Positions 35,941 through 58,660 of a DNA stretch of 64,000 nucleotides are shown in pieces. Every line of letters begins with the position of its first letter. Position 1 is the stretch's first letter. Source of the stretch: Chamaesiphon sp. (GTDB lineage Bacteria; Cyanobacteriota; Cyanobacteriia; Cyanobacteriales; Chamaesiphonaceae); assembly GCA_965246715.1 (NCBI GenBank), contig CBDFFH010000027.1, positions 64,001-128,000 of the forward strand. The letters are read 5' to 3'. Below the pieces are notes generated by a model. That model made no database searches. It was given only the letters and a program-made list of their open reading frames with translations, and was not told where the DNA came from. A program made the position numbers and the translations under genes.

Positions 35941-36238
35941 GAGCGACCTATAATGGTACCGATCTCACTATATGATGCCGAAGGCTGGCTGTCGCCCCCT
36001 TTAAGCTCAGTAAAATTTCGCAAAATCGCCAGCGAATTACTGTCGCACGGACAGGAAAAGACCCGAACTTTTGGCTAGGTTTAAGACCGATTAAAGCCAG
36101 CCTGAATTATTCAATAACTAATGAAATGTAGATCCTAACTGCACCTTGCAAACACAGACTATTTTTAACGTCGATGCTCTAACTCTTTTCCTGCAAGGAT
36201 TTTGGCGATTTCTAGCAATCTTCATGAACAATGTAGAA

Positions 36239-36349
36239 GATAATATATAGAGTGTATTGATGACACATCGGGCTTTGGGCCGATATTTTTGGCGGAGATC
36301 GCCCTCTATTTCAGGGATAGACGGAAATCCATATAATAAACAGTTAGCT
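36239..36349 (+). promoter_or_regulatory. attI-like region, copy A
   Basis: Homologous to 37613-37726; ends TATAATAAACA-GTTAGCT. Confidence 0.65.
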
Positions 36350-36405
36350 GGAAAAACTCGGTGCTGCATCATGGATGCAAACCTTTATCCAAGTCGCAAC
36401 AATCT

Positions 36406-37275
36406 ATGACTGACCGAAATCAATATTTGTTGGAATTAGCCAAACGCAATGCCGTAGCTTACATTGCTAATCCGAAAGCGAAAGCTGCAATGGTTACGGG
36501 TTCAGTTGCAGAAGGGCTATGCGATGAATATTCCGATTGCGAGATAATCTTTTCCTACGACGAGTTACCGTCTGAAGAAGAGTTGCGCCTAGCGCGGCAG
36601 CAAAATCAGGGTTCAGAGCCTCTCTGGAGTTTAGGCAATTTACAAGAGGGTTCATTTGGTGAAAGTTACCTTGTGAACGGGGTTGAATTTCAGATCGGTC
36701 ACGAGACGATCGCCAACTGGGAAAAGGAGATTGCGACTATTTTGGAGGAGTTCGACCTTTCTCCAATGATGAAAGCGATGACCGGAACCCTAATCGGTGT
36801 TCCCTTGTACGGCGAGCCGCTAATTCAGCAGTGGAAAGCTAAAATTGCAAATTATCCAGATGGACTCGCACAAAAAATGGTCGAGCATTATCTCAAATTT
36901 GTCCCAATTTGGGGAATGCAGGAGAAGCTGGCTAGACGAGATACAACGCTGTGGTATCATCAAATTCTGGTTGAGTCCGCTCAAAACATTCTAGGTGTAT
37001 TATCTGGTCTGAATCACTTATATTATTCAACGTTTCAATTCAAGCGAATGAGCAGATTTATCGAACAGATGGAGGTTGCGCCTGAATATCTCGATGAACG
37101 TCTCGAAAGTTTGTTTCATGATGAAGCCCCTGTCGCTGTCGATCGGCTTGAAGTGTTAGTTCGAGAAACTATCAAGCTCGTCGAGATTGAGATGCCTCAA
37201 GTAGATACTTCCTCAGCAAAACGGAAAATAGGATGGAGGCAGCAGCCGTGGAAACTCAGCGAGTCGAATTGGTGA
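36406..37275 (+). CDS. Nucleotidyltransferase-fold protein (DUF4037-like), gene cassette
   Basis: TGSVAEGLCDEYSDCE motif; bounded by GTTAGCTGGAA (36343) and its complement TTCCAGCTAAC (37280-37290). Confidence 0.75.
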   Translation: MTDRNQYLLELAKRNAVAYIANPKAKAAMVTGSVAEGLCDEYSDCEIIFSYDELPSEEELRLARQQNQGSEPLWSLGNLQEGSFGESYLVNGVEFQIGHETIANWEKEIATILEEFDLSPMMKAMTGTLIGVPLYGEPLIQQWKAKIANYPDGLAQKMVEHYLKFVPIWGMQEKLARRDTTLWYHQILVESAQNILGVLSGLNHLYYSTFQFKRMSRFIEQMEVAPEYLDERLESLFHDEAPVAVDRLEVLVRETIKLVEIEMPQVDTSSAKRKIGWRQQPWKLSESNW

Positions 37276-37360
37276 GGCATTCCAGCTAACCGTTATAACG
37301 CCTCACCCCAGAATATTTGCTAACCTTAATAGAGAATGTCAAAACAGGAGAGTGGTAAGG

Positions 37361-37520
37361 AGTAATAAATTCTTCTATCTCCTTGCTACCAATCTGTTGG
37401 GGATGTCGCTTGTTACGATCGAGGATATATCTGATAATCCAATTTACATAACTTTGCTCGGTCTTGGATAAGTATTGCTTGACTCGGATCGCGTCTCTAA
37501 CTCTGTCCACGAGCTTTTTT
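37361..37520 (-). pseudogene. intI: Integron integrase N-terminal (SAM-like) fragment
   Basis: KKLVDRVRDAIRVKQY..TEQSYVNWI.RYI...KRHP..IG..EIEEFIT; no catalytic domain. Confidence 0.82.
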
Positions 37521-37612
37521 AGTGAGGGCTTCTGTCGCCACAATTTTAGTTCCAGATAATATCCTGATTTGGGGGGATATCTAGAAAGTTTCTGAATATC
37601 GCGCTGATTTAG

Positions 37613-37726
37613 GATAATATACAGAATGTATTGATGACGCATGGGGCTTTCAGCCGACATTTTTCTGTATATCAACCCAATTTCTAGAGAGTAGACGGAA
37701 AGTTTCCGTATAATAAATAGTTAGGC
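37613..37726 (+). promoter_or_regulatory. attI-like region, copy B, divergent from intI
   Basis: Lies 5' of intI; ends TATAATAAATA-GTTAGGC (GTTRRRY core). Confidence 0.7.
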
Positions 37727-37852
37727 AGCTTAATTTTTCGGTGAGGACATCGTTGAGAGATTGCCTGTTAGCATTTGAAACGAAAGCCGTCTTGAGAAAA
37801 TCGGTAAAGCCGTAAAATTGAGGTTAAGCGTTACAAGTTTGGCAAAGTCCAG

Positions 37853-38683
37853 ATGAATACCGAGCAACTACAAGATCGATATGTCAAAGTCGGTTCAATT
37901 AATACCCGATATTGGCAAGCTGGTGATTCAGGCAACACGGTCATCTTGCTTCATGGGGGTGGCGGCTACATTGAGTTGTGGAAGCACAACATCTTTGAAT
38001 TAGCCAAGCATCACCGCATTTATGCGTTTGATATGGTGGGTGCAGGTCGATCCGATAAACCGGATGCTGATTACACCTTTGACTTTATGGCGCAGTTCAC
38101 GCGGGATTTCATGAAGGCTTTAGATATCTCTAAAGCGAGTTTGATTGGAACTTCTGCGGGTGGTGGGGTGGCACTCACCGTTGCGCTGAACTTTCCAAAG
38201 TTAGTCGATCGCCTTGTTCTGGTTGGCAGTGCTGGTTTAGGTAAAGAAATCAATTTTCTGCTGCGGGTCACAACGCTTCCGGGTTTAGGCAAATTATTTA
38301 GTTCACCAAGTAAATCGGGTGTGGCAATGTTGTGTAAACAGGCAGTCTACGACCCAGCTCTCATTACTGACGAGATCGTCGAGGAATTCTATCAAATGGC
38401 GACGCTTCTTGGCTCGTCAGAAGCAACATTAAACGTCGGTCGTTCCAATTTCAATATCTGGGGACAATTTCACCAGTCGATTACTGAAAGATTAGGGACT
38501 ATTGCGGCTCCGACCCTAATTGTTTGGGGTAGACAAGATCCGATGGTTCCTGTAACCCATGCTCAGAGTGCTACTAAAATCATTCCGAATGCTCGGTTGG
38601 AAATTATTGAAGAGTGTGGTCACTGGAGTTCGATCGAGCATCCTCAAAAATTCAATCAGTTAGTTTTAGAGTTTATGTCATGA
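37853..38683 (+). CDS. Alpha/beta hydrolase, gene cassette
   Basis: LLHGGG, GTSAGG, WGRQDP, CGHW. Confidence 0.92.
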   Translation: MNTEQLQDRYVKVGSINTRYWQAGDSGNTVILLHGGGGYIELWKHNIFELAKHHRIYAFDMVGAGRSDKPDADYTFDFMAQFTRDFMKALDISKASLIGTSAGGGVALTVALNFPKLVDRLVLVGSAGLGKEINFLLRVTTLPGLGKLFSSPSKSGVAMLCKQAVYDPALITDEIVEEFYQMATLLGSSEATLNVGRSNFNIWGQFHQSITERLGTIAAPTLIVWGRQDPMVPVTHAQSATKIIPNARLEIIEECGHWSSIEHPQKFNQLVLEFMS

Positions 38684-38710
38684 TTTTGGGTTGGTCGCTA
38701 GTTGCCAGCC

Positions 38711-38796
38711 ACCTAACACGTCATGGCAGCGGACGGACGACAGCCGCTGGTGATGATTTCAAGGTTACTTGCCGCCGCTGCATTTTGCCGTTATTT
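38711..38796 (+). other. attC recombination site (86 bp)
   Basis: R'' ACCTAAC-5bp-L'' ATGgCAGCGGaCGG ... CCGCCGCTGCAT L'-6bp-R' GTT, with two unpaired bases. Confidence 0.8.
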
Positions 38797-38833
38797 CGAT
38801 CGAACCCGATCGGTTCAAAACATTGGGCTGGGT

Positions 38834-39475
38834 TTAAGACCGATCGCTCAGGTGAACCAACCCGCGTCGCAAGGCTGTGACTACAGCTTGAGTCCGATCG
38901 CTCGCGTTCAACTTGCTCAAAATATTGTTGATATGAAACTTGACGGTGCTGGCGGTAATCCCCGACTCAGTACCAATTTCCTGATTGCTTTTGCCGACTG
39001 CCAGCAATTGCAACACCTGCCGTTCGCGATCGGTCAGTTCTGAGGTATTCAAACGCTCGAACAGCTTCACGCCCACAGCCGAGGGCAGGCGTTGCTCTCC
39101 CGCATGAACGGCGCGGATCGTAGCGATAATTTCATCACAGTCCGTATCTTTGAGCAGATAAGCCATCGCTCCGGCTCGGAGTCCTTGATAGATGTCTTCG
39201 TCGCCGTCGTAGGTGGTGAGTACGATTAGACGAGCATCGACAAACTCGGCACGAATGGCAGCAATTGTCTTTGCTCCATTTAACTGGGGCATCTGCAAAT
39301 CGATCAGCGCGACATCGGGTTGATGTTGCCGAAATAAGGCGACCGCTTCATTCCCATTGCCTGCTTCGGCAATGACTGTCATATCGTCCTCGTTATCCAA
39401 AATCAGTGCCAGCCCTTTCCGTAAGGGTGGATGGTCGTCAGCTAGCAGGATGCGAATCGGTTGAGTGGCAGTCAT
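38834..39475 (-). CDS. NarL/LuxR family response regulator
   Basis: LADDH, DLQMP, LTDRERQVL..GKSNQEI..TVKFHI. Confidence 0.95.
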   Translation of the reverse strand: MTATQPIRILLADDHPPLRKGLALILDNEDDMTVIAEAGNGNEAVALFRQHQPDVALIDLQMPQLNGAKTIAAIRAEFVDARLIVLTTYDGDEDIYQGLRAGAMAYLLKDTDCDEIIATIRAVHAGEQRLPSAVGVKLFERLNTSELTDRERQVLQLLAVGKSNQEIGTESGITASTVKFHINNILSKLNASDRTQAVVTALRRGLVHLSDRS

Positions 39476-44206: not shown

Positions 44207-44632
44207 ATGAACTACACCACTTCACTAAGCAAACCTAGAAATAAAATTTCTTGGAAATATATTCAGTATGCCTTGATTTCCTGTTTCTCCCCAATTATTT
44301 GGGGATGGAACTTAGCTCCTAGAGCTGATGCCGCTCCAATCTACGATGCTTTCGTAACAGTATCGACTACTAAGATTGCAACGATAATGGCTGGCTTCCC
44401 AGTCGCAGGGCCGCTATTTACGACTCTGTTTACTGCGATTGTCAATCTGATCCCTTGGTCTGTATTGCTGATAGTCGGTGGTATTGTCATCTGGCAAGCT
44501 TATCTGGGATATCAGGAATACGATCGAGAAAACTTTTCTGGGATAGTTAAACCGATGTTAAATATCATCGTCCTGGTAATTCTCGTCATTGCCACAGATA
44601 GAATTATCAACTTTATATTTACTGGTGCTTAA
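44207..44632 (+). CDS. Putative VirB2/TrbC-like pilin (copy 1)
   Basis: Signal-like N-terminus (ADA) and hydrophobic helices; upstream of virB3/4-like genes. Confidence 0.55.
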   Translation: MNYTTSLSKPRNKISWKYIQYALISCFSPIIWGWNLAPRADAAPIYDAFVTVSTTKIATIMAGFPVAGPLFTTLFTAIVNLIPWSVLLIVGGIVIWQAYLGYQEYDRENFSGIVKPMLNIIVLVILVIATDRIINFIFTGA

Positions 44633-44676
44633 TTCAATTAAATGTCTAATAGCTGTGACAGCTTTTACCTAATTAT

Positions 44677-44970
44677 ATGGAAAGAAAAACGCGAATCGAA
44701 GTCAATAGAGCATTGAGACGGAGAGCGAAGATGATGGGTATCCCTCGCGATGTCGCGATCGTTTTGGCACTAATCGTGGTTTTCTGTCTATTTCTAGGAT
44801 ATTTGAAAGTTCCTGGTAACATCGTTACAGCTATTTTTGTCACTTTATTTTTCACTGCCATACTCTCTCTCAAGGATGTCCTAGCAAGAAACAGGGAACC
44901 AAAAAATTACACCAGAGGATGTCTAAATTATCGTTCGCCTAGCGCTCCCTTGGGGAAATCGCCGCTTTAA
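44677..44970 (+). CDS. Putative VirB3-like membrane protein (copy 1, degenerate)
   Basis: Two TM segments; lacks GMAD of the paralog; 24-bp insert near the C-terminus. Confidence 0.55.
   Translation: MERKTRIEVNRALRRRAKMMGIPRDVAIVLALIVVFCLFLGYLKVPGNIVTAIFVTLFFTAILSLKDVLARNREPKNYTRGCLNYRSPSAPLGKSPL
44934..44957 (+). mobile_element. HIP1-core-targeted micro-element (24 bp)
   Basis: CG^TTCGCCTAGCGCTCCCTTGGGGAA^ATCGC; removal gives YRSP as in the paralog. Confidence 0.75.
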
Positions 44971-45040
44971 GAAAAATTAGTTTGCCACCGCTTCAGTGAA
45001 TTAATTACTTGGTTTAAATCCTTTAATTTGTTTATCGGTT

Positions 45041-45108
45041 ATGAAAAATAAAGAAGGCAAAAAATCTCAAAAGCCACAACGACAGCTCAGAAAAATAAAG
45101 CATGAAGG
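45041..45108 (+). pseudogene. 5' stub of a VirB4-like gene cut by an IS
   Basis: MKNKEGKK..LRKIKHEG versus MKNKESNK..LRKIRHKG of 55049-57838. Confidence 0.8.
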
Positions 45109-46122
45109 GGGAGCATCCCACTTTTTATTCGATCGACAGAGGTAAATCTTATGTACTATTATGATGGTTGAGGAATTTGCCTCTAAATGGAAGCAGATTG
45201 ACAATAATTTTGAGATAATGAAGTCAAGCCAAGTACATTAAAGTAGTGTGATGAGTCCAGAAGAACGAGAAGAGATTGCAGCATATACTGAAGCAATTGC
45301 TAAAATCCTGTATAAAAATACGCCGATAGAACAACTAACTAGCTTAGGGAAAATAGAAGAGGTGGTGCGAGATAGAATGCAAGAATATGTGATGCCGTCA
45401 GTCGGAATTTTTTTATCAAAAATGTCACCGGAGAAAGCGGTGGATACGAAAGACATATTAAAAGCATCATCGGAGAGCTAGTGATTACAAGTAATCAGGC
45501 CAACAAGCTGGAAGTAAAAAGTCATTCACAAATTAGCCCTTACTTAGAAGCATGTTGTTTGAGGATAAGTGCATCAGTTTCTTATGAAAGGACGACTGAA
45601 GAAATTAAATATTTAACGGGAATAGAAATATCGAAAAGTACTCAACAGAGATTGATTCATCGACAAGAATTTGAATTGCCACAAGCTGAATCAATTGTCG
45701 CAGAATTAAGTGTAGATGGCGGCAATATCCGAGTCCGAACATTAGAAGGAGAGCCATCTAGCTGGAAAGGGTATAAAGCAACAGTATTGCATGGACACCA
45801 GGTAATTGCAGGTTCATTCCAAGAAAATGATGTGCTTATTAGCTGGGTAAATAGTCAAGAGTTAGCACCGATTGTTACTTGCTTGGGTGATGGACATGAT
45901 GGCGTATGGAATATTATTCAAGAATTTGCACCGACTGGAGAAAGAAGAGAAATTCTTGATTGGTTCTGGAGCGATTGAATCTACGATTAAGCAGATAGAT
46001 CGTCGCACAAAAATCTCTGGAGCGCAGTGGAAGGCTGAAAACGTCCCTCAAGTACTAGCCCATCGCTGCGCTTACCTTAATGGGTTAATTTGCGATCGCT
46101 AAATAAAAAGTGGGATGCTCCC
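45109..46122 (+). mobile_element. ISKra4-family IS, internally deleted
   Basis: 21-bp perfect TIR GGGAGCATCCCACTTTTTATT; VDGG, LGDGHDGVW, GSGAIES motifs; no TSD. Confidence 0.85.
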
Positions 46123-46814
46123 AAACATATCTTGCTATTCATTTGACCGATCGACCGATCTATTTCCATGATTTGGTTGCCAATCGCACTTTAATAGAAT
46201 GTCCGATCGGTATGGCTATTTATCATAGTCATCTTGAATCGATTAAGAACATCGGTGAAGAAAATGAGTTTGACGAGCGATGTCAGATATTTGTTGGGTG
46301 GTTATACGATCTCGCTGGACAAAAGGAATTATACGATGGCGAGTATGTCGGCCAACCTTTATATATTAAAGGACAATATATACTCGATATCGTCGAAAAA
46401 GCCGGATACTCTGATTTTTATTCCTGTTCTCTGGAAGAATATTTAGGTCTGCCGTTCGATCCCGAAAGACTATATTTCGTGCCACCACATTTTGTCAAAG
46501 ATGAAATTCTCAATCTGTCGCGATTGGGGATAGATCGCATTGTTGAGTGGAATAGTCCAGTGGATATTTGCAATGTATTTACCGAACAAGATCGATCGAC
46601 TGGCTCTAGTTCTCTATGTGTTATTGGTGGCGATCTCGAACAATCTTTAGATACGGCAGGCTTTAAAAGAGAATTCTTTATCGACAGCAATAAAAAGTAT
46701 TATATCCCTGCCAATTTAACGATCGATGGGCAATTCAGATCGCTAACTTCTGATGATATTTGCGATCTGGTTGCATACAACGAGAAAAATATTAAACATT
46801 GCGCTCCTTTCTGA
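46123..46814 (+). pseudogene. Hypothetical protein, 5' end replaced by the IS
   Basis: Long open frame whose only early start lies inside the IS TIR. Confidence 0.55.
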
Positions 46815-46849
46815 ATTTTTAATTAGGAAAAATAGATGCAGGAAATTAA

Positions 46850-47784
46850 CATCATCAGGTACGGCAAAGAGCACACTTTTTAATTTTAGCTTCGCAGCAA
46901 ACTAAAGTCAATCAGTTGATGGACATATTTGATATTAGTTATAAAACGGTTTATAACTGGATAAATCGATGGGAGTCGGAAGGAATGGTCGGGCTATATA
47001 ATCAACCAGGCAGAGGCAGGAAAAAGACATTTAATTCTGATCAATCAAAAAAAATTAAAGACTGGGCAAAGCAGGAGCCAAGACAGTTGAAACAAGTGGT
47101 ACAAAAAGTCAAAGCGGAATGGGATATTGACATTAGTACTAAAACCATCAAGAGAATACTTAAATCATTGTCAATGAGTTGGCATCGGATGCGCCGAGGT
47201 GTTAGGGGAGAGCCAGATCCAGCGGAATACATCCAAAAGCAAGCAGAGCTAGCCAAATTAAAACAATTAGAAGATGCTGGAGAAATTAGTTTGTATTATT
47301 TAGATGAAACTGGTTTTTGCTTGATTCCTGTGGTACCTTATGGCTGGCAAAATATTGGTGAATATTTATCAATAGATAGTAGTCGGAGTAAGCGATTAAA
47401 CGTTTTAGGAATTATCAGCCGAAAGAATCATCTTGAAGCCTATATCTCAACTCAAACTATTAACTCTGACGTGATTGCTACCTGTATAGATACTTTTTTC
47501 CCAGTTGTCAATCTACCTACTTATATTGTGGTAGATCGAGCGAGTATTCATACTAGTGGGGCGATTTTTGAACGCCTTGAAGAATGGAAAGAGAGAGGTA
47601 TAACTATCTTTGAATTGCCTGCTTATTCTCCTGAATTAAATTTAATTGAGATCTTATGGCGATTTATTAAATATGAATGGCTGACAATAGATGCGTACTC
47701 TAGCTGGCAATCATTGGTATTGTCTGTTGAAAAGATCCTCAAAGAATTTGGTAAAAACTATGTAATTAATTTTGTCTAGCTACT
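46850..47784 (+). mobile_element. IS630-family element, left end missing
   Basis: HHQVRQRAH.., YLDETGF, VDRASIH, LPAYSPELNLIEILW; right end CTACT-TA. Confidence 0.9.
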
Positions 47785-47786
47785 TA

Positions 47787-49343
47787 ACTCGCGAAAATCC
47801 CTCTGAAACACCTTCTGTCAAATCGGCTACAGTATCTCGTACAAATTCATCAGAAGCAGCTATAGATTCTGGATTTAAAGTTACTCAAAAAGATTCAAGT
47901 AACCCCGACCTCAGCCCTAAGCAACAGGCGGAGCAATCGATCGCACAATTAAATAGCCTCTTGGTAAATCAGAAGCACTTTAAGCGCGATCTAGATGTTA
48001 ACGGGACTAAATATAGTTTTGAGAAATATCGAGGTGGTGCGATAAATATTGAATCCTTAGATTCTAAGTTATTTGCAAAGCAAAGGAGAATTACATTTGG
48101 AGGAGATGAATCAAAAATAATTCGAGATTTACCAGAAATCGTTGCGCGGGTAGATCGAGAGTTAGATCTGGAACGACCGAAGCAGATAAATAATCGAACT
48201 GAAGTTTTATACGGCTACGACTCAAGTAATAATTTCATTGAAAAGACCCTCTCCCAAAAAGATGCCCAAGCTATCCTCGATCTGATGGATGGAAAAGAAG
48301 GAACTACTATCGCAGGGGGAGAGAATCTGCTAATCGAATATGATGGTAAAAAGCTATTTGAAACCGACGCTCAAGGGGTGGTAACTTACAGTGCTTACGA
48401 TCGCGATCCCGAACTTCTGAGCAGTGTCAAACTCAAGGATGAGCAGGGATTGACCGACCTCAAGAATTACGCTAAACGCATGGCTGCGTCTCCCGATCGT
48501 GAGGCTAAAGTCACTAAAACTGCCGATGTAGTAGTACCAGATCCACCTCAAGAAGTTAGTAAAGTAGCACCCCAATCCCCGCTCGGAAAAACGCTCGACC
48601 GCCTCGGCGCGCTTCGCGATCGCGCCGAATCTACAACAGATGTAGATCCCCAGCAAGCATCTAGTGTCGTTTACGATCGAGTCCTCAAGTCAGAATTTGC
48701 TAAAGCTAAATCCGTCAACCGCGCTGAAAAGACGATCGAGGCGGTGAAATTCAAACTAAACCCTCAAACTCGCAAAGGAACGCGCTCCATCTCCGTTAAG
48801 CCAAGTAAAGATGCCGATTTTGTCAAAATTGGCGAAGTCGATAAAGAGGGTAAATTTAATCCAGATCCCAAACTTAACGATCCCAATGTTACTAAAGCAC
48901 TCGATCGAGTCTTGGCGGCACGAGGCATCGATCCTCAACTAGTTAAAGAAGCCCAACAAGTTGAAGTAGCCGCTCGATCCAAAGATCCTCAATACCTCCC
49001 ACTCACTCAGGAAAACGCGCCCAAACCCACGCAGAATATTGTCAAATCCCCTGAATTAGCCACTGCTGGTAACGCTTCAGGTGTTAATACACCCAAACCC
49101 AAGCCAAAGACTAAAAATAACACCCCTGAATTATCTACCACGGCTAGTAACGCTCCGAGCGTTACTAGCCCTAATACCACTCTGAATATCGGTAATGATT
49201 CGCCTGAGTTAGCTTCTGCCCCTACCAACTCTCCAGGCGTTAGCGTTCCGACTCGTGGCGAAAAAGAAGCTGTGCAAGTCCCATCAAGCGGCGGCACTCC
49301 CGAAAGATCGCTCCCAGAACCCGAAGTATCCCAGAACCGATAA
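47787..49343 (+). pseudogene. Large hypothetical plasmid-type protein, 5' truncated by IS630
   Basis: The 523-aa frame starts inside the IS end; Pro/Ser/Thr-rich tail with three PEL repeats. Confidence 0.6.
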
Positions 49344-50613
49344 TGTCACAACCAGACCTTACCCAACTAATGACTCAGCACCGGATAATCTTGGTGCGCT
49401 GTAATCCACTCGATCGCGAATGGATCGTCAGTACTCACTTGAGCGATTGCCAGCGGTGGCGATTGAATGTTGCGATTCTCCAAGGGAGAGGCTACGCCAA
49501 CGCCAACGATGCGATCGCTTCGCTCGATTTATCTACGAATATAATTGGAAGCTGCCGACTGCTGCGGAAATTACCGAGTTATTTGGCGAATACCACTTCG
49601 AGCCAAGCGAGCGCAATCTCAGGCTGGCATCGGGGCTAGCTTACCAAGATCTCAAGCTCGCACTGCAACAATCGATCGACCATCCAGAGCCAGAACTATA
49701 TTTAGAAACTTATCGCAACGCACGACTTTCCCTGCTAGGTGTTAAATACGATCCGCCCCCAGCATTCAAAGAAATCGCTGGATTAGATGAATTGGTGCTG
49801 GCAATCGATAAGCTGAAATTTAGATTCAGCCAACGTGCGATCGATATTGGACTACCTTACCCGAAAGGCTGGCTGCTAGTCGGGATACCAGGAACGGGAA
49901 AAACATATTCTGCGCGATCGATCGCCTCAGCACTGGGCTACCCCATGTTATCGCTAGAGATCGACAAAATTAAGGTCGGTGGTTTGACGGCAATGGCAAG
50001 GGTTTTAGAAATCGCTCGCGTTTGTGCCCCATGTATTTTCTACATGGACGAGATCGAGAAGCTATTTACCAGGGACGATAAGCCACTTCTATCCCTACTA
50101 TTAACTTGGCTGCAAGATAAAACATTCCCAGTTTTTGTTATCGGTACTCTCAATCGGATTGAAGATTTACCCGTTGAGGCTACTCGTGCTGGTCGATTTG
50201 ATTGTGTTTGGGAAGTCGATTCTCCCGATGCCGAATCTCGTCTGAATTTATTCATACTATTTCTCAACCGATTTGACTCTAGATTTAAAGACGATCTAGT
50301 TTTTGATAAATACGAGTGGCAAAGCATTCTCGATGAAACGATTGAGTATGTCGGTGCAGAAATCGAGCAAATTGTCATCGATACAATTGCAAGAATTAAA
50401 GAGGGCGATCCTGATGGAGAAGTTACAGCAAGAGATTTACTTGAGGAAGCAATGCAATTTAATTGTCTGTTCGAGCGCAATTCCAAACAAATTGTCACAA
50501 TCAGAAACTCAATCCGCGAATTAGCAAAGCCCTCTCATTCAAAAAAACAGAGTATTCTGGCACCTCGGAATTTCGATCCTTACCGACCTGCAAAAGTAAC
50601 ATCATCAAATTAA
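49343..50613 (+). pseudogene. Ycf46-like AAA+ ATPase, N-terminus out of frame
   Basis: GIPGTGKT, YMDEIEK, RAGRFD; the ATG coupled to the upstream stop (TAATG) is in another frame. Confidence 0.75.
49477..49500 (-). mobile_element. HIP1-targeted micro-element (24 bp)
   Basis: GCG^TTGGCGTAGCCTCTCCCTTGGAGA^ATCGC; removal restores GCGATCGC. Confidence 0.88.
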
Positions 50614-50640
50614 AAACCGATCTAATATATTAATACCAAA

Positions 50641-51288
50641 ATGTTTAAAGTTACTAATAAAAATAGTGGCGATACCAGTAAGTCTCCACTTACTAGTTAT
50701 CTGGATGCTATCGATCGAACAGAAGCATTAGCTAATATCGACAAGCTCGTTAACAGCCGCGAATTATCTACCGATGATGAGATCTATCATATAACTGGGA
50801 CGGTCGCCCAAATTGAGAAAATTAGCGAGTATCTACATGTGGTTACTTCTGCTGTGCCTCAAGCAATTCAAATGTTACTCGAAGAAGAACGTCAACAACG
50901 TCAAACCGAATCTTCAACAATCGATACTCGACAAGAACAACTACTTACAAAACTCGATCGAGATCGCGAAACTTATCGCGACTTAACCAAACAAGCGATC
51001 GATCGTAGCGGTAGGAATATTAACAATAGACTCATGAGTTTATCTTGGAGTCTAGGCGGTTTCTCGATCGGCATGGTAGCTACATCATTACTGGCATATT
51101 TTGTAGTCTTTCCTCAACAATTAAGATTAGCCAGAGGTTCTGATGGAGCGATGCTGGAATGGTTGAGTACGTCCGATGGCAAGATTCTTCGTCGTGCATT
51201 TGTGTCTGGGAATAGATCGGTAGAAGCATGTATTCATAAAGGAATTAAAAAAACTGGTAAAACTGTATGTATGTTGGAGATCCGTTGA
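50641..51288 (+). CDS. Coiled-coil plus single-TM plasmid protein (DUF6753-like)
   Basis: Coiled coil, TM segment, then W.ST.DG..N..C tail. Confidence 0.55.
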   Translation: MFKVTNKNSGDTSKSPLTSYLDAIDRTEALANIDKLVNSRELSTDDEIYHITGTVAQIEKISEYLHVVTSAVPQAIQMLLEEERQQRQTESSTIDTRQEQLLTKLDRDRETYRDLTKQAIDRSGRNINNRLMSLSWSLGGFSIGMVATSLLAYFVVFPQQLRLARGSDGAMLEWLSTSDGKILRRAFVSGNRSVEACIHKGIKKTGKTVCMLEIR

Positions 51289-51289
51289 T

Positions 51290-51376
51290 ATGGCAAACAA
51301 TAAAAAAGAAGAGCATTCCGAACAAATAATTAATGAGCATTTCACTTCCACATTACATCTCTGTAATGGATTCTTA
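51290..51376 (+). pseudogene. Gene stub cut by IS5
   Basis: ATG 1 bp after the upstream stop; MANNKKEEHSEQ.. runs into the IS end. Confidence 0.55.
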
Positions 51377-52293
51377 GAACCTGTTTGAAAAGTTTGAGGA
51401 TAGCTTACCCAGCATGAGTTTTAGGCTCTAATCGACGAACCATCAAATGAACCATAGCAGCAAACAGCATCATTTCGCTGGTAGTGGGCAAAAATTCATA
51501 GTCTTTACTTAAACGCCGATAATGTCCAAACCAGGAGTAAGTCCGCTCCACCACCCAACGTTTAGGAATAACCTGAAAACCAGGTTTCTCATCAGTACGC
51601 TTGAGATGTTCCAACTTCCAGCCAAACTGTCGTTCGATCTTTGCCACAAATTCCTTACCAGCAAAGGTGCTGTCGATCCAAATCACTTGCAGGCACTGCC
51701 ATAACCAAGCCCAGAACGTGGCTAGTAAAATCATCCCCGCATGGTCGGAGCGTCCAGCACTATGCACACAGACACCCAGCAGCAGACCCATTGTATCGAC
51801 CAAGATGGTTCGTTTACGTCCTTTAACCTTCTTGCCACCATCAAATCCGATCTCCTCACCCCCACTGGCTGTTTTCACCGATTGACTATCCACGCTCCCT
51901 GCACTCGGTTGGGCATTTCTTCCGGCTGCTAGTCGCACCTTTACTCGTAATTCATGATTGAGTTTCTGCCATGTCCCATCTGCCTCCCATGCGCGGAAAT
52001 AGGTGTAAACACTCGGCCATTTTGGTAGGTCATGGGGCATTGCTCGCCATTTAATCCCGTTAGCCAGCAGATAGAAGATTGCATTGAGCACTTCTCTCAT
52101 CTCTAAGCTCCGAGGACGACCTCCTTGTTTGGCCGCCGGAATATACGGTTCTAAAATTTGCCACTGGTCATCTGTGAGGTCTGTGTCGTATGCTAGTCGT
52201 GTCATTATAAGGGTCTGTTTTTAGACCCTTTTACTTTACAATTGCCTTGTCACAGAGGCTCAGAGGCGTTCTCAATACTTTTCAAACAGCTTC
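51377..52293 (-). mobile_element. IS5-family (IS1031-like) element; transposase 51405-52205 intact
   Basis: YDTDLTDDQW, DSQSVKT, KRWVVERT; 17-bp TIR GAA(C/G)CTGTTTGAAAAGT; flanks TTA and TCA differ. Confidence 0.93.
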
Positions 52294-52779
52294 TCAGGCA
52301 AGAGTGTAGCGATATGCAGTTGTCGGAATTTTTCTTCCGCCTTCGACAGCGATACCAGGATCGGGAATATTTCCCTTTTCTGGTAGCGTGTTTCGCCAAG
52401 TATAAATACCACTCATGGTTTTTTGAGCGAAGAACTTAATCAGCGTTGGCGACCGATCGGTTCCTGTGAAAAATTCGAGATTTTCGGTTTCACCATTACC
52501 ACGAGTAATGAAAGTTGGCATCGATCGCGAGATGGCAGCAAATAACATGCCGATAATAGCTACTCCAAAAAAAACATTAATAACCAGCAACCCGAAGGTG
52601 GCGATTTTCCAACCAGTAATGATATTTTTCGAGCGGATTGTTTCGGAACTATCTACGATATATTCATCTTGCGTATCATCTCTCGAATCGTGGAGAACTA
52701 TTACCGATGAATGTTCATCTTGTTGTGGAACAAAGTTTGATATTTGTCTGACTTTCATTGTTTTACAATAGAGTGACAA
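52294..52779 (-). pseudogene. Bitopic conjugation protein (VirB8-position), ending at the IS boundary
   Basis: One TM then a periplasmic region; the stop codon abuts the IS5 TIR. Confidence 0.5.
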
Positions 52780-52799
52780 TCCGATAGTAGAAACTATAA

Positions 52800-53915
52800 T
52801 TATTTTTTAGGAATCATCTTGGATGGTGCTACAAGTCCGATGAGATCGGTTGTAAGTTGAGCCATTAGTGCGTAGATACCAGCTCCGCCACCTTTGGCAA
52901 TTACTCCAGCAATTATCGGTGCGCCGATAGCATAGCCTAGTTGTAAGCTATAGGCTGGCTGGCTTCCTGATGTATTTGCGTTGATAAAACCCATCATTGC
53001 ACCCAAGATAGTTAATGAGAACTTGAAAATACCTAATCCCCATAATGAAGCAAACCAAATTTCAAGTGGTTTGGTATTTAAAAATGAGAAGGCAAGTGGA
53101 ATCGGCAGAGCCAAAATTGACAGGATGAAACCTTCATCAGCTATTTCACCAATCATCACAGACCAGCCATCTAAGATGGCACCAACCAACCAATCGCGCA
53201 ACCATTTATCTGGGTCATTTGCAAATTTGACAAATTGATTCCAGACGCTGTTATAGTCATACGAATCGACGAGACTATTCATTTTGGCTTCTGTATCGGC
53301 TAATTCTGTGACAAGTTCGGGATTCGCTACCGATAGTTTAGCTGCGACAACCATCGTCTTTACATCTTTAGTACACTGGACGTATGCTGGATTTGGAATG
53401 ACATTCCCTGGCTTGGCGGGATCGGGATCGGCGATCGTCTTCGGTAACTTGATGCAGACTTGCATTTGATTACTAATCGCCTTAACAGTTTCATTGTCGG
53501 TTTTTATCCCCGCAAGTTCGGCATTGACACTTCCTAACAATTTTGTATTGGTGGCGATCGAACTATCGATACCTCTAATCAGAGCATAGTTACCGATCGC
53601 AAATACACGCGCTCCATAAGCATTCCCCACGAACATAAATGTGATCAGCAGGAGCGTTAAAATCCTCAGCAGATGATTTTTAAGGTTGTCGAAAGATAGA
53701 TCTGGGATAATTGGCACTAGCCAAAACAATACCCCAACTCCGGCAATAACCTTGCATGGTTCGACTATTGCCATCCAAAAAGTATCTGTAAAAGATGCTG
53801 CGTTACCAGTAATTAGAATACTAATTATCTTAAATAGTGCCTGTTCGTACTCACTCGCAATTACAGCAGGATCGGTTGAGGCGAGGATTGTAGTGTGAAT
53901 AATATCGGCAAACAA
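52800..53915 (-). CDS. Polytopic membrane protein, VirB6-like
   Basis: Multiple TM segments, central loop with two Cys; position in the tra-like operon. Confidence 0.55.
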   Translation of the reverse strand: MFADIIHTTILASTDPAVIASEYEQALFKIISILITGNAASFTDTFWMAIVEPCKVIAGVGVLFWLVPIIPDLSFDNLKNHLLRILTLLLITFMFVGNAYGARVFAIGNYALIRGIDSSIATNTKLLGSVNAELAGIKTDNETVKAISNQMQVCIKLPKTIADPDPAKPGNVIPNPAYVQCTKDVKTMVVAAKLSVANPELVTELADTEAKMNSLVDSYDYNSVWNQFVKFANDPDKWLRDWLVGAILDGWSVMIGEIADEGFILSILALPIPLAFSFLNTKPLEIWFASLWGLGIFKFSLTILGAMMGFINANTSGSQPAYSLQLGYAIGAPIIAGVIAKGGGAGIYALMAQLTTDLIGLVAPSKMIPKK

Positions 53916-53952
53916 AATAGCTCTGCTCCTGTAATAAACGACTGTCTATCGA

Positions 53953-53991
53953 TTTAAGATATTTGCATTTGCTAAGTGCAAATATCTTAAA
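53953..53991. terminator. Strong intergenic hairpin
   Basis: TTTAAGATATTTGCA..TGCAAATATCTTAAA. Confidence 0.55.
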
Positions 53992-54005
53992 GGACGTTCG
54001 ATTCG

Positions 54006-54027
54006 TTCGCGTAGCGTACCGTAGGTA
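54006..54027 (+). mobile_element. HIP1-core-targeted micro-element (22 bp)
   Basis: TCG^TTCGCGTAGCGTACCGTAGGTA^ATCGA. Confidence 0.85.
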
Positions 54028-54042
54028 ATCGAACACTATGAA

Positions 54043-55038
54043 TTAAATCCAGCAAATATTACTTGAAGCGCACAATCGAGCGCGAGCTTTGATTTTGTTA
54101 GCGTCAAGATAAGTGGTTCTCAGCGAATCCATGTCTGCTTCAACTCGTTTTTGCTCGTCCTCGGCGATACTCCGCTGTTGTACCAGAGCGTTGTGCTTGG
54201 CTTGATTTTCTCCTTGAGATAAATTAGCCAGCCCGATGGTATTGGCAGTGGCACTCATAATCAGATTTTGTGAGAGCATATTGTTCATCGCTCCCATGCG
54301 GTTAAAACTGCTACCCGCTTTGGCACTGAGATCGGCTTGAGCGGCACCAGTCGCCAATGTGGAATTATTAGCATCGCCAGTCGCACTCATAATCGAGGAA
54401 ACTGCTTTGTTGGTGTTTTGGCGATTGGCTTCGGCAACACTGGCTCCAGACTTAGATTTGGCTAAATCTATTTGAGCGATAACAGCTTTGGTATCGAGTC
54501 CTTTTCCGTTGAGGATGTTAGAAGCCTGATAAGCAATCATTTTGCCTGTAGGGTCGTCGGTTTTGACGCTACCATCTGGATTCAAAGGTTGGATATTACC
54601 CGCTGCATCGAGTCCGTAACTGCCGAAGTTAATTCCTACACCAGTACCGCCGTTCATCCCTGCCGTAGCTTGTCCGATTTGTGCCAAGGTAGGTTGCTGA
54701 CCTGCTAATACGCTTTGTGCGATCGGTGCGTATTTCGACGCAGTTGTCAGAGCTGAGGCGATATTTGGATCTAGCCCTGGAAAGGCACTGACGATCCCAC
54801 TAAAGACGTTAGAAAGATTGCCAGGATTGGATAAGATCGACTGAATGCCTTGGGGATTGAATGTGGGATTTGCTGTTGGGTCGGTGGGATTTGCCGTGGG
54901 TGTGTCGCCTGGAGCGACCGAGGATGGAAGTGGATTGGCTGTTCCACCAAGAGTTGCTGCCTCAGCTCCGAGTGGGAGTAAGCTCATCACAAAGCCGGAC
55001 ATGAATGCGATCGTCAGTAATAATGGATATTTTTTCAT
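54043..55038 (-). CDS. Secreted protein, VirB5-position
   Basis: Signal peptide (AEA), helical Ala/Gln/Asn-rich C-terminus. Confidence 0.5.
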   Translation of the reverse strand: MKKYPLLLTIAFMSGFVMSLLPLGAEAATLGGTANPLPSSVAPGDTPTANPTDPTANPTFNPQGIQSILSNPGNLSNVFSGIVSAFPGLDPNIASALTTASKYAPIAQSVLAGQQPTLAQIGQATAGMNGGTGVGINFGSYGLDAAGNIQPLNPDGSVKTDDPTGKMIAYQASNILNGKGLDTKAVIAQIDLAKSKSGASVAEANRQNTNKAVSSIMSATGDANNSTLATGAAQADLSAKAGSSFNRMGAMNNMLSQNLIMSATANTIGLANLSQGENQAKHNALVQQRSIAEDEQKRVEADMDSLRTTYLDANKIKARARLCASSNICWI

Positions 55039-55048
55039 AATTTTTCTC

Positions 55049-57838
55049 TCAATGAGTAATAAGGGTTAGTTCGTCGATCCGACCGTTGGTGGCTGCCGCG
55101 CGAGCTTTGCGCTCTTGCTGCTCGTCGATATTGTTAGCTGTGAGAGCCACCAACGAGGGCGGGAGATAAATTCGCGCGGGAGTGAAACGATCGTCTATTT
55201 TGAGCAACCATTGGCTAGAGCAAGTGGCTTTATCTGGCTCAAAATCTTTTCTGGCATTGTTCGATGCCAATGCTTCGGGGACTCCCAGCAATTCGGGATT
55301 GCAATACTCAGCCAGAGAGTCGCCAATTCTGCCGATGAGGTGATACGAGAGCGCGTCCTTGATTTTTTTCCCACCCGCACTCTCGAACACGCTACTCGGC
55401 TCCTGTGCCGCAATCATCAGGCGCATTCCAGCCTTGAGTCCGTTTGCTGCGACCCGCCCGACGCAGAGTGAGAGCGGATCGAGATCGAAGGTAATCGAGG
55501 CTTCGTCGATAAATAATAGAGAACCTTTTCCACTTGCGGCGGCAATCGCTCGCCGCATTGCCGCTGCGTACATAATCGTGCCGAATACCGCAGCATCATC
55601 GTTGTTGCTGACTCCCCGCATGGCGATGGTCATGAGGGGACTATCGAGTTTGACGGAACTCGGAGAATTTATAGTCTTACCGTAGGAGCCATCGATCCAC
55701 CGTTGGAGTTGCAATTGAATCGTACCAAGAGTCTCGATATCGTCAGCGGTTGCCTCTGGAAGATTTATTCGTTCGATCGTGCAAAACCGCTTGAAGTCTG
55801 AGAGGGTGGGATAATCTTGCCAAGCTCTAGAGCCAATCCCCCCATTAATCGCGCGTTCGTACCGGATTAAAATCCGCTCGTCTTTGAAGAAGTTTTTCAG
55901 AGCGGTGGTTAGCATCGAAATGACCTTGCTGCTACTGGTACCCTTGAGTTCGCCTTTCCAGCCCAAAACCATTGCAGTCAGAATTTGAAGGATAAACTCT
56001 TCATTCTGTCTTTTCATGTCCTCGCGCGTCTCTGGATCGATATCTTCAACAATTAGCGGAGTCTCAAAGAAGTTAATGGAGTCGTTAAAGACATCGATAT
56101 AAGCCCCATCCATGTATTCGGTAAAAGCCTTGAACGAACTCGCCTCTTTTGTCGGCGGCTGATCGAGAATCGTCACTGGAATTGCTTGACTCAGTGCTTT
56201 GTGAATGTTAAATGCGGCATATAAAGTCTTACCAGAGCGAGTTTTACCCCAAATAGCGGTGTGTCCCATGTGTGTGAAAGGGTCGAAATAGACGGGCGAA
56301 CCGCCCTTATTCGCAATAAATTCGATTCCAGATTTATGCGCGTTAACCGTCGTTACCATTGGGAAGTAAGCAGCGACGATTTCGGGGCGTTCGCGATCGC
56401 GTCTGTCGCGGACATCCACCAGCATCGACTTACCGTAAAATGGTAAAGATGATACCCACAGCGAATCAGAAGTATCTACTTCCAGTAGTACAATTGCTGG
56501 CGATCGAAAATGCGAGCAGAAGTCACGAGCGGCAAAGTGCATCTGCTCTAGAGTTTCTCTGTAGACAAACATACAGAGCGAAAATTCGACACTCGTATCG
56601 CCACCGATTAACATCCGCTCGGTTTCGAGGGCTTCTTTCAGCTCCTCGTCTGCCAAAACGTCAACTTGTCCTTTTTCCTCTGTTTCTTTCTTGCGGTAAT
56701 GATTTTGGCGGATGAGTTGTTGGTTGTTGTAACGAACGCCGAACTGTTCGGGACGCGATAGCTCTAGCACGATTCGATAATCGTAAGCCGAGCCGATTGC
56801 CATCAAATTCGAGAGATAATGCAGTTGAACTTCCTGGTACGACTCATTACCCGCTTCTTCAAAGACTTTGGGTTGAAGTTTCAGCAGCAGACTGCCGACG
56901 TATCGACGATCGACTTTTACATGGTCGCGGTTGGAAGAGGGAACGGCAGAAGGATAGCGCATCATTACTGTAGTTGGATGCAGTTGCGATCGCACGTTTT
57001 CGCCAATCGTGCCTTTTTGGAGATTAAATTCGACGATCTGTGGTGCTGGTTCTGGTTTGAGTCCTTCTACCCGATCGTTAAACCGATTTAGTTCCTGCCA
57101 GCAATGCTGCCAAACTTCCTCACCAGACAGGGGAGTGGCTTTGAGTTGAAGTTTATCTCTAAATAAATTCGACCACTCAAAAAAGCCCTGCTCGTAGGCA
57201 TTTAGGAGAATTGCATCGATCGTTTGTTGGCGAACTTCCTCGATCGAACCCGATAGCCTTTGATACCAAAGGGTACTGAATTTGATGACTTTCTCAATTA
57301 ACTTTTGCTCTCGCGCTCCTAAGTTAGGGGTAAAAGTGCCCATCAAAAATACTTGGTGAGGGCGACGTTGACCGCTAATGTCGAGATTCTGTAAAATCAA
57401 CATTTCCTCAGCGATTAAGGGCTGAGATTGGGCTGATGCTGTTTCAAATTGAGCGATCAATTCATTCAGGCGAACATTACGATCGCCGAATGATTGAAAT
57501 TCAACGCGCAACTTCTCACCGATCGGTAATTCGTGTCCCAGAGATGAAATTGAGTTAATAATCGATCTAGCCGCTACTTCGCCAAAATCATCGTGAATGC
57601 CTGGGCATTCCCAAATAAATCGCAATTTGTATTCTGGCTTGTCAATTTCATGACTGGTATTTAGCAATAAAGCACCAACTTGAATACCATTTGGCAAGGT
57701 ATAGTTGATGATACTTTGCAAATGAGTTGAGGTTTCCAGAGGATAGAGCAGTTTCTTTTTGTCGCTTAAACCTTTATGTCTGATTTTTCTTAGTTTTAGC
57801 TTTTGGCTCAGAGGTTTATTGCTTTCCTTGTTTTTCAT
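55049..57838 (-). CDS. VirB4/TraC-like conjugation ATPase
   Basis: 929 aa; GKTRSGKT Walker A, LLFIDEA Walker B, AAQEP. Confidence 0.8.
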   Translation of the reverse strand: MKNKESNKPLSQKLKLRKIRHKGLSDKKKLLYPLETSTHLQSIINYTLPNGIQVGALLLNTSHEIDKPEYKLRFIWECPGIHDDFGEVAARSIINSISSLGHELPIGEKLRVEFQSFGDRNVRLNELIAQFETASAQSQPLIAEEMLILQNLDISGQRRPHQVFLMGTFTPNLGAREQKLIEKVIKFSTLWYQRLSGSIEEVRQQTIDAILLNAYEQGFFEWSNLFRDKLQLKATPLSGEEVWQHCWQELNRFNDRVEGLKPEPAPQIVEFNLQKGTIGENVRSQLHPTTVMMRYPSAVPSSNRDHVKVDRRYVGSLLLKLQPKVFEEAGNESYQEVQLHYLSNLMAIGSAYDYRIVLELSRPEQFGVRYNNQQLIRQNHYRKKETEEKGQVDVLADEELKEALETERMLIGGDTSVEFSLCMFVYRETLEQMHFAARDFCSHFRSPAIVLLEVDTSDSLWVSSLPFYGKSMLVDVRDRRDRERPEIVAAYFPMVTTVNAHKSGIEFIANKGGSPVYFDPFTHMGHTAIWGKTRSGKTLYAAFNIHKALSQAIPVTILDQPPTKEASSFKAFTEYMDGAYIDVFNDSINFFETPLIVEDIDPETREDMKRQNEEFILQILTAMVLGWKGELKGTSSSKVISMLTTALKNFFKDERILIRYERAINGGIGSRAWQDYPTLSDFKRFCTIERINLPEATADDIETLGTIQLQLQRWIDGSYGKTINSPSSVKLDSPLMTIAMRGVSNNDDAAVFGTIMYAAAMRRAIAAASGKGSLLFIDEASITFDLDPLSLCVGRVAANGLKAGMRLMIAAQEPSSVFESAGGKKIKDALSYHLIGRIGDSLAEYCNPELLGVPEALASNNARKDFEPDKATCSSQWLLKIDDRFTPARIYLPPSLVALTANNIDEQQERKARAAATNGRIDELTLITH

Positions 57839-57886
57839 GACGCTAAATAAACTAAAGGATTCAAGCCAATCGATCGAAAATAAGGT

Positions 57887-58216
57887 CTAGGGTCTTTTCT
57901 TGGAGTGAAGGTCGATCGATCGCGGAGTTAAATCTGGAATTGGCGAACGATAATTCAAGCATCCTCTGGTGTAATTCTTTGGCTTTCTATTTCTTGCCAG
58001 TACATCTGCCATGCCATCTTTTAGGGAAAGTATGGCTGTGAAAAATAAAGTCACAAAAATAGCTGTAACGATGTTAGCCGGAACCTTCAAATATCCTAGA
58101 ACTAGACAGAAAACTACAATTAGAGCCAAAACGATCGCGACATCGCGAGGGATACCCATCATCTTCGCTCTGCGTCTTAATGCTCGATTAACCTCGATTC
58201 GTGTCTTTCTTTCCAT
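57887..58216 (-). CDS. Putative VirB3-like membrane protein (copy 2)
   Basis: VNRAL..MMGIP, two TM segments, directly upstream of the VirB4-like gene. Confidence 0.6.
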   Translation of the reverse strand: MERKTRIEVNRALRRRAKMMGIPRDVAIVLALIVVFCLVLGYLKVPANIVTAIFVTLFFTAILSLKDGMADVLARNRKPKNYTRGCLNYRSPIPDLTPRSIDLHSKKRP

Positions 58217-58234
58217 TAATAGATACCGCTTGAA

Positions 58235-58660
58235 TTATGCACCTGTGAACATAAAGGTGACGATCCGATCTGTTGCAATTACGAGAATTACGAGGACGAT
58301 AATATTTAACATTGGCTTGACTACACCAGAAAAATTTTCTCGATCGTATTCTTGGTATCCCAGGTAAGCTTGCCAGATGGCAATACCACCGACTATTAGC
58401 AATACAGACCAAGGGATCAGATTGACAATGGCAGTAAACAGAGTAGTAAATAGCGGCCCTGCGACTGGGAATCCAGCCATAATCGTTGCAATCTTAGTAG
58501 TCGATACTGTTACAAAAGCATCGTAGATTGGAGCGGCATCAGCTCTAGGAGCTAAGTTCCATCCCCAAATAATTGGGGAGAAACAGGAAATCAAGGCATA
58601 CTGAATATATTTCCAAGAAATTCTATTTCTAGGTTTGCTTAGTGAAGTGGCGTGGTTCAT
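58235..58660 (-). CDS. Putative VirB2/TrbC-like pilin (copy 2)
   Basis: Near-identical to 44207-44632. Confidence 0.55.
   Translation of the reverse strand: MNHATSLSKPRNRISWKYIQYALISCFSPIIWGWNLAPRADAAPIYDAFVTVSTTKIATIMAGFPVAGPLFTTLFTAIVNLIPWSVLLIVGGIAIWQAYLGYQEYDRENFSGVVKPMLNIIVLVILVIATDRIVTFMFTGA

Follow-up and report, generated by a model that had tools for sequence, protein, structure and literature searches.

A degraded and doubled integron in Chamaesiphon sp.: two attI-cassette units in tandem beside a truncated integrase gene

Inactivation of the integron integrase gene, intI, has been reported at frequencies of nearly a third (PMC2426708) and of 43-46% (PMC3108266), and in Xanthomonas it is reported to be lineage-wide (10.1101/2025.06.18.660453). 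For cyanobacteria, the survey in PMC4889954 describes integrons, multiple integrons per genome and CALINs, and states that a search for attI was impossible for most integrons. Models of cyanobacterial attC sites are given in PMC8352920. SALINs have been attributed to attG insertion (10.1101/2022.09.11.507474), and semi-conserved attI sites have been described in archaea (10.1101/2022.02.06.479319). Our searches turned up no paper that deals with attI of cyanobacteria or with their intI-less attI platforms, whether dispersed or stacked, although supplements may tabulate such loci.

We analyzed a 64,000-nucleotide stretch of DNA from Chamaesiphon sp., hereafter the window. Its integron locus is genuine, degraded and doubled; it consists of two attI-cassette units in tandem, presumably joined via deletions. 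Parts were identified in both halves, and therefore the order of the locus can be given as attI-A, cassette A, collapsed attC, DUF4365 remnant, intI stub, attI-B, cassette B and attC. The features, in window coordinates, are as follows.

36066..36091, plus strand: left copy of a 26-bp direct repeat, resembling the 3' end and stop codon of a response-regulator gene
36099..36236, no strand assigned: decayed inverted-repeat element of about 140 bp, putatively MITE-like, abutting the left end of attI-A
36239..36349, plus strand: attI-A, the second attI, left-truncated, with its crossover G/TT at 36343 and TATAAT at 36332
36343..37290, plus strand: cassette A, with a nucleotidyltransferase-like gene of 289 codons (ATG at 36406, stop at 37275)
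37284..37296, plus strand: attC of cassette A in collapsed form, with almost nothing between R'' and a GTT
37297..37356, plus strand: 60 bp from the interior of a DUF4365 cassette gene, left over from the second cassette of array A
37361..37543, minus strand: N-terminal intI stub, about 50 homologous residues, no catalytic domain
37545..37726, plus strand: attI-B platform, with a conserved motif at 37697-37715, TATAAT at 37709 and its crossover G/TT at 37720
37720..38790, plus strand: cassette B, with an alpha/beta hydrolase gene in an open frame
38711..38796, plus strand: intact attC, R'' at 38711-38717 and R' at 38790-38796; the bottom strand folds
38786..38821, plus strand: short flank that recurs behind another integron array of the same contig and behind an array in genome G020
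38819..38844, plus strand: 26-bp direct repeat, right copy, which covers the stop codon of a response-regulator gene (38834-39475, minus strand)

The preliminary description saw a canonical integron layout here. This does not hold, because the locus is two fused attI-cassette units in a genome that has 16 attI-like loci. As far as the published accounts describe them, the locus resembles Xanthomonas-type sedentary integrons in its intI broken by deletion, in the attI and short array left behind and in repeated independent loss of the integrase. It differs in that Xanthomonas has one ancestral locus beside ilvD, whereas the 16 loci here are of two types and lie in unrelated places, two of them stacked. 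It also resembles CALIN and SALIN elements, which are described as one or few attC without a functional integrase nearby and have been proposed to be mobilisable in trans (PMC4889954, 10.1101/2022.09.11.507474). The platform itself is like class 1 attI1, as that site is described, in having a degenerate L box, a spacer, a GTT core by the divergent intI 5' end and repeated accessory motifs upstream. In attI1 the accessory IntI sites are two direct repeats, named DR1 and DR2, whereas here inverted repeats of about 25 bp are the candidate accessory motifs.

With a G/TT crossover by the start of intI, attI-B is a predicted attI, defined by comparison. The divergent GTTAGGC core reported earlier is present (GTTAGGCAGC from 37720), and the conserved motif lies directly upstream of a full-length intI in G007, G004 and G302. 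Over 114 nt, attI-A and attI-B share 79% identity. A palindrome scan revealed that attI-B holds palindromic accessory repeats, one of them at 37576-37600. Inverted repeats of about 25 bp recur over 37576-37715 of the window, and by coordinates 14 of the 18 matches of this pattern in the genome are in attI regions; a short attI variant without about 94 bp between two repeats was also observed. The repeats may be bound by IntI or by a regulator of the host. TATAAT stands just before the crossover in both copies and that of attI-B is the best promoter-like match of the promoter scan, which gave 7 matches versus 5.5 expected and is not above chance. It is possible that TATAAT serves as a cassette promoter, which would be a reason to keep attI once intI was lost.

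The IntI N-terminal fragment that had been noticed on the minus strand matches PF13495 (E 2.4e-11). Its best NCBIfam family is the integron integrase TIGR02249 (E 1.1e-11), which argues against the alternative that it derives from a non-integron tyrosine recombinase; the match covers positions 2-51 of 315 only, in agreement with the claim that the catalytic domain is lost. Within its own genome, the stub matches only intI fragments and attI regions, and no other tyrosine recombinases. With the intact IntI of G302 it shares 59% identity over 51 aa, and stub and attI-B together are 84% identical in nucleotides to an integron of G002, whose intI scores over the family cut-off. None of the 18 matches in the 99.8%-complete assembly passes the TIGR02249 cut-off, the longest covering positions 1-121; the assembly is a draft from which an intI could be absent. 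The cut-off is passed in seven of 41 genomes, several of these genes being broken; intact genes exist in G302 and G041. The locus has no intact IntI and is thus not a functional complete integron; it would work as an integron platform that has lost its own enzyme, and the view that cassette change at the locus depends on IntI from elsewhere is supported.

Cassette B fits the preliminary description in all its parts. The ORF at 37853-38683 encodes an alpha/beta hydrolase (PF00561, E 7e-37), whose nearest NCBIfam families are HsaD and BphD, both below cut-off. From computed motif positions, we take S101, D229 and H257 to be its catalytic triad. The start of the cassette, GTTAGGCAGC at 37720, is complementary to GCCACCTAAC at 38708 at 8 of 10 positions, and manual pairing of the 86-bp attC leaves two bases of the bottom strand, a C and a T, unpaired. 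Folding energy is weak evidence for an attC (z -1.9 and -0.7 for different choices of ends), and therefore a covariance model was used instead. The model was made of 13 attC sites of other genomes taken from 15 candidates, omitting one false-looking and one reverse-strand candidate. It scored 38711-38796 at 53.8 bits (E 6.4e-11), which argues against the alternative of a site that an attC model fails to recognize; the next best of its three hits in the window reached 14.8 bits. A CALIN carries two or more attC and no nearby intI, whereas the window has one scoring attC and an adjacent intI fragment. An origin as a SALIN by attG insertion does not fit either, because a SALIN is a single attC cassette away from other att sites and integrases, whereas this cassette is placed at a true attI beside an intI stub.

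The interval of the preliminary description also takes in 36239-37356, but the description does not mention what this left half contains: a second attI with a second, eroded cassette array. The ends of cassette A are complementary at 11 of 11 positions. Its gene has 469 homologues; the named ones among the matches listed are cyanobacterial, the best being 90% identical, and PF01909 was found in one homologue, P0035. The covariance model finds no attC site of array A. G036, the sole relative that gives an attC context, has the same gene and the same R'', followed by an intact attC (46.5 bits). In the window R'' runs nearly straight into GTTAT, and therefore the hairpin of this attC is gone. The next 60 nt (37297-37356) are 93-95% identical to sequences in four relatives and 76-92% identical to those in four more. 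The parent gene, which relatives have whole, encodes a DUF4365 protein (PF14280) and is followed by an attC in G011 and G020; the end of this cassette predicts a start of GTTAT, which fits the window. That these 60 nt are the end of an IS or an intron was rejected, because they are coding sequence of the DUF4365 cassette. We infer that this piece meets the intI stub at a 5-bp word common to both parents, with one base changed in the window.

The two units lie in a 2.75-kb block that is bounded by the 26-bp direct repeats, 2753 bp apart. The repeat copies are identical at 23 of 26 positions, and no such match occurred in 30 of 30 shuffles of the 8-kb region. The idea that the repeat is a genome-wide regulator site was not supported; beyond the two copies there are 2 weak matches (up to 5 mismatches). 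The decayed element at the left of attI-A shares 71-76% identity with elements of G009 and G010 that bear terminal inverted repeats. The short flank on the right is 86% identical over 36 nt to C27:55208-55243, and its pattern occurs in 2 of 27 genomes. The neighbours of the block are a dsbA-like thioredoxin gene on one side and a LuxR-type response regulator gene on the other. A dsbA-like gene and a regulator gene of G037, only 54-57% identical to those of the window, are about 200 bp apart, and a single contig of run X1, of low depth and with just 33 nt on one side, connects 36085 with 38967. The G037 arrangement and the X1 joint suggest an empty allele; neither amounts to proof, and the X1 joint may come from a paralogue or another organism. 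A search of the genome contigs with the dsbA-like protein for a close empty site gave distant relatives alone (at most 52% identical), and a DNA search of 41 genomes gave no orthologous region for the locus.

The contig is 210 kb long and carries no tRNA. A VirB4/TraC-like module 5-20 kb away matches small replicons of G011 and G020 as well as the large replicon of G020. The contig DNA is likely derived from a plasmid or ICE; since the module also matches a large replicon, the 'plasmid' may be an integrated element. Among matches of 47 larger proteins outside the window (E<=1e-30) were transporters, topoisomerase I, RecD2 and RecQ, and most proteins gave none. Within the window, 44207-58660 holds a conjugation-like module (VirB4/TraC-like ATPase at 55052-57838 and a TrbD-like gene) broken by IS elements and an AAA-ATPase block. 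On the other side of the locus, 14207-35940 is a long, mostly same-strand run of oxidoreductase and stress genes up to a two-component system, with several SDRs, NmrA, pirin, GST, glyoxalase, F420-type oxidoreductases and a thioredoxin-like gene.

The platform is not confined to this locus. An iterated profile revealed the 16 attI-like loci of the genome at E<=1e-9, in two sequence types, and 3 weaker ones. Fourteen of the 16 are on contigs without tRNA, which together account for 1.87 of the 6.12 Mb. The genome has at least 13 attC sites at E<=0.01, plus one more in a later scan; this is a lower bound because only 150 candidates were scored. From coordinates, 10 of the 13 have an attI-type platform upstream, correctly oriented, and the other 3 do not, which is unlike CALIN and SALIN elements. 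Several attI-like loci have no attC behind them. Among 27 congeneric genomes, the attI motif was found in 23, with 81 matches (13 in this genome) versus 1 in the control, and the motif with GTT was found in 12 of 301 genomes drawn phylum-wide versus 0 in the control. GTT follows 3-5 nt past the motif in 63 of the 81 congeneric sites, versus a background of 4.6%.

Most of these sites lack a complete integrase gene. At the 53 congeneric sites with at least 1.2 kb of upstream DNA, intI is near-complete in 3, a fragment in 22 and missing in 28; the scoring covered 1.4 kb upstream, and therefore a site where an IS separates intI from attI, which is the case in G011, is classed as partial or none. 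Outside the genus, 14 sites show near-complete intI in 2, partial intI in 5 and none in 7. On the left, homology ends at points spread over about 9-510 bp, without a common junction. Leaving out the 11 of 81 sites without a core, no common site-specific left boundary of orphan attI units was found among the 70 aligned left ends. The scatter therefore favours erosion over a site-specific dispersal step. Other arrangements were observed. At L057:2300-3800 (G020:C2) and L257:1663-2020 (G295), an intI-less attI directly behind attC-bearing DNA makes stacked arrays. The closed chromosome of G302 carries one intact integron and two attI with intI fragments only (G302:C1:1169752, 3444673 and 5663044). 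At L061 (G003:C55:9162-9245), a lone attC lies directly behind a paralogous response-regulator gene, with complementary flanks on both sides.

In cis, the array is frozen in this strain, as far as the assembly shows. It had been described as frozen unless IntI is supplied in trans. The need for IntI from elsewhere stands, but 'frozen' is overstated, as intact intI genes exist in relatives; the word is too strong also because an orthologous intI-less attI begins with different units in two genomes. In both G001 and G019, the end of a CLC-CBS-Usp gene passes at an identical base into an attI that lacks intI (1322 bp, 89%), and the units past G/TT differ between them. G041 and G023 are without the insert, and G041 continues into the oxidoreductase gene that G001 has behind the insert. 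The CLC-CBS-Usp stop codon is thus seen in filled and empty versions (L168, L209, L230 and L232, in G019, G001, G023 and G041, respectively). The first unit in G001 is a BrnT/BrnA toxin-antitoxin pair. The covariance model found no attC in the first units of G001 and G019, and the G019 contig ends 283 bp past the motif; therefore ordinary deletion may explain loss. The difference between G001 and G019 is a hint, at the level of sequence comparison, of exchange in trans. A second hint comes from the Chamaesiphon genome studied here, where attI of both types have one ORF-less cassette (96% identical over 158 nt) in first place. It is AT-rich, about 70 bp and has an attC (G000:C23:10088-10240 and G000:C27:168390-168543), and a 77% identical relative stands first in G020. 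It is possibly a promoter cassette, and its place behind both attI types may date from the integrase's presence.

How did the doubled locus arise? Most probably, two plasmid-borne integrons were fused and stepwise shortened by deletion, leaving cassettes that would change only with IntI from elsewhere. While active, IntI would have loaded each cassette at G/TT. The arrays would then have been brought together and shortened via short-homology deletions, in which the hairpin of attC-A was presumably lost, the DUF4365 cassette was cut to 60 bp and the remnant was joined to the intI stub at the shared 5-bp word. The block may have entered between the dsbA-like and response-regulator genes in a homology-driven event, not made by IntI, that left the 26-bp repeat. 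The attI parts may have been kept because of a cassette promoter, given TATAAT ahead of the crossover in both copies. Cassette B, which has an attI and an intact attC, would still be a substrate for IntI in trans, and cassette A would be locked. No intermediate of the tandem was found, and therefore this order of events is a reading of the junctions only.

The attI copies could instead be neutral, decaying remnants of plasmid-borne integrons that were never reused, with the cassette genes persisting or dying like ordinary genes. The scattered deletion ends, the collapsed attC-A, the attI-like loci without attC and the frequencies at which integrase inactivation is reported (PMC2426708, PMC3108266) all fit such debris. 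We nevertheless regard it as rather unlikely, because the attI core and GTT are kept in 63 of 81 sites where intI is mostly gone (an argument that is partly circular, as the sites were picked by motif), both cassette genes here have open frames, and the first units differ at one orthologous intI-less attI. The locus might also be an artifact of assembly, in which two integron loci collapsed at the repeated attI. The attI is indeed repeated in the genome, and contigs of the run break at the attI-B core, but the two copies are just 79% alike, and a 1665-nt X1 contig spans 36057-37721 without a difference and overlaps the next contig into cassette B. X1 may be the source data of the assembly, and therefore this contig is no independent support; even so, a chimera is highly improbable.

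An active role of IntI in spreading the platforms would account for stubs by attI, for stacking and for short arrays. Through recombination between attC and a secondary GTT in intI, IntI would excise circles that comprise the stub, the attI, the cassette and its attC, and would reinsert them elsewhere; the reinserted composite cassettes would multiply and stack attI sites. Use of genomic secondary sites by IntI has been reported (10.1101/2022.09.11.507474), and homologous intI genes have GTT where the window stub ends. The window itself has GTA at this point, not GTT, the junction fits the 5-bp word shared with the DUF4365 fragment, and no GTT junction is common to the 70 left ends that were aligned. 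The block is moreover bounded by the 26-bp repeat, and IntI is not known to produce such repeats. Such self-dispersal is therefore improbable, and fusion followed by stepwise deletion is the reading that we prefer.

As a single locus, this is an ordinary decayed integron, and the surrounding pattern matters more. Decayed integrons were already known; what is new is an attI consensus for a cyanobacterial integron clade. The consensus is searchable and shows that many apparent SALIN and CALIN elements here are headed by predicted attI sites, and attC counted as isolated often lie behind a real attI. The use of integrase-less arrays in trans and the origin of CALIN and SALIN elements thereby become testable, and G302 is a natural test case. 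The comparisons suggest that integrase-less attI platforms are not always inert and that their genes may be swapped if IntI comes from elsewhere. More tentatively, these genomes may hold a distributed integron, in which many integrase-less, promoter-bearing attI, stacked or dispersed over chromosomes and plasmids, would be loaded and reshuffled by one resident or visiting IntI; we hold this to be possible but not probable. If it is true, a large share of the apparent SALIN and CALIN elements would be satellite attI arrays that are still live, and not debris or insertions at off-target sites.
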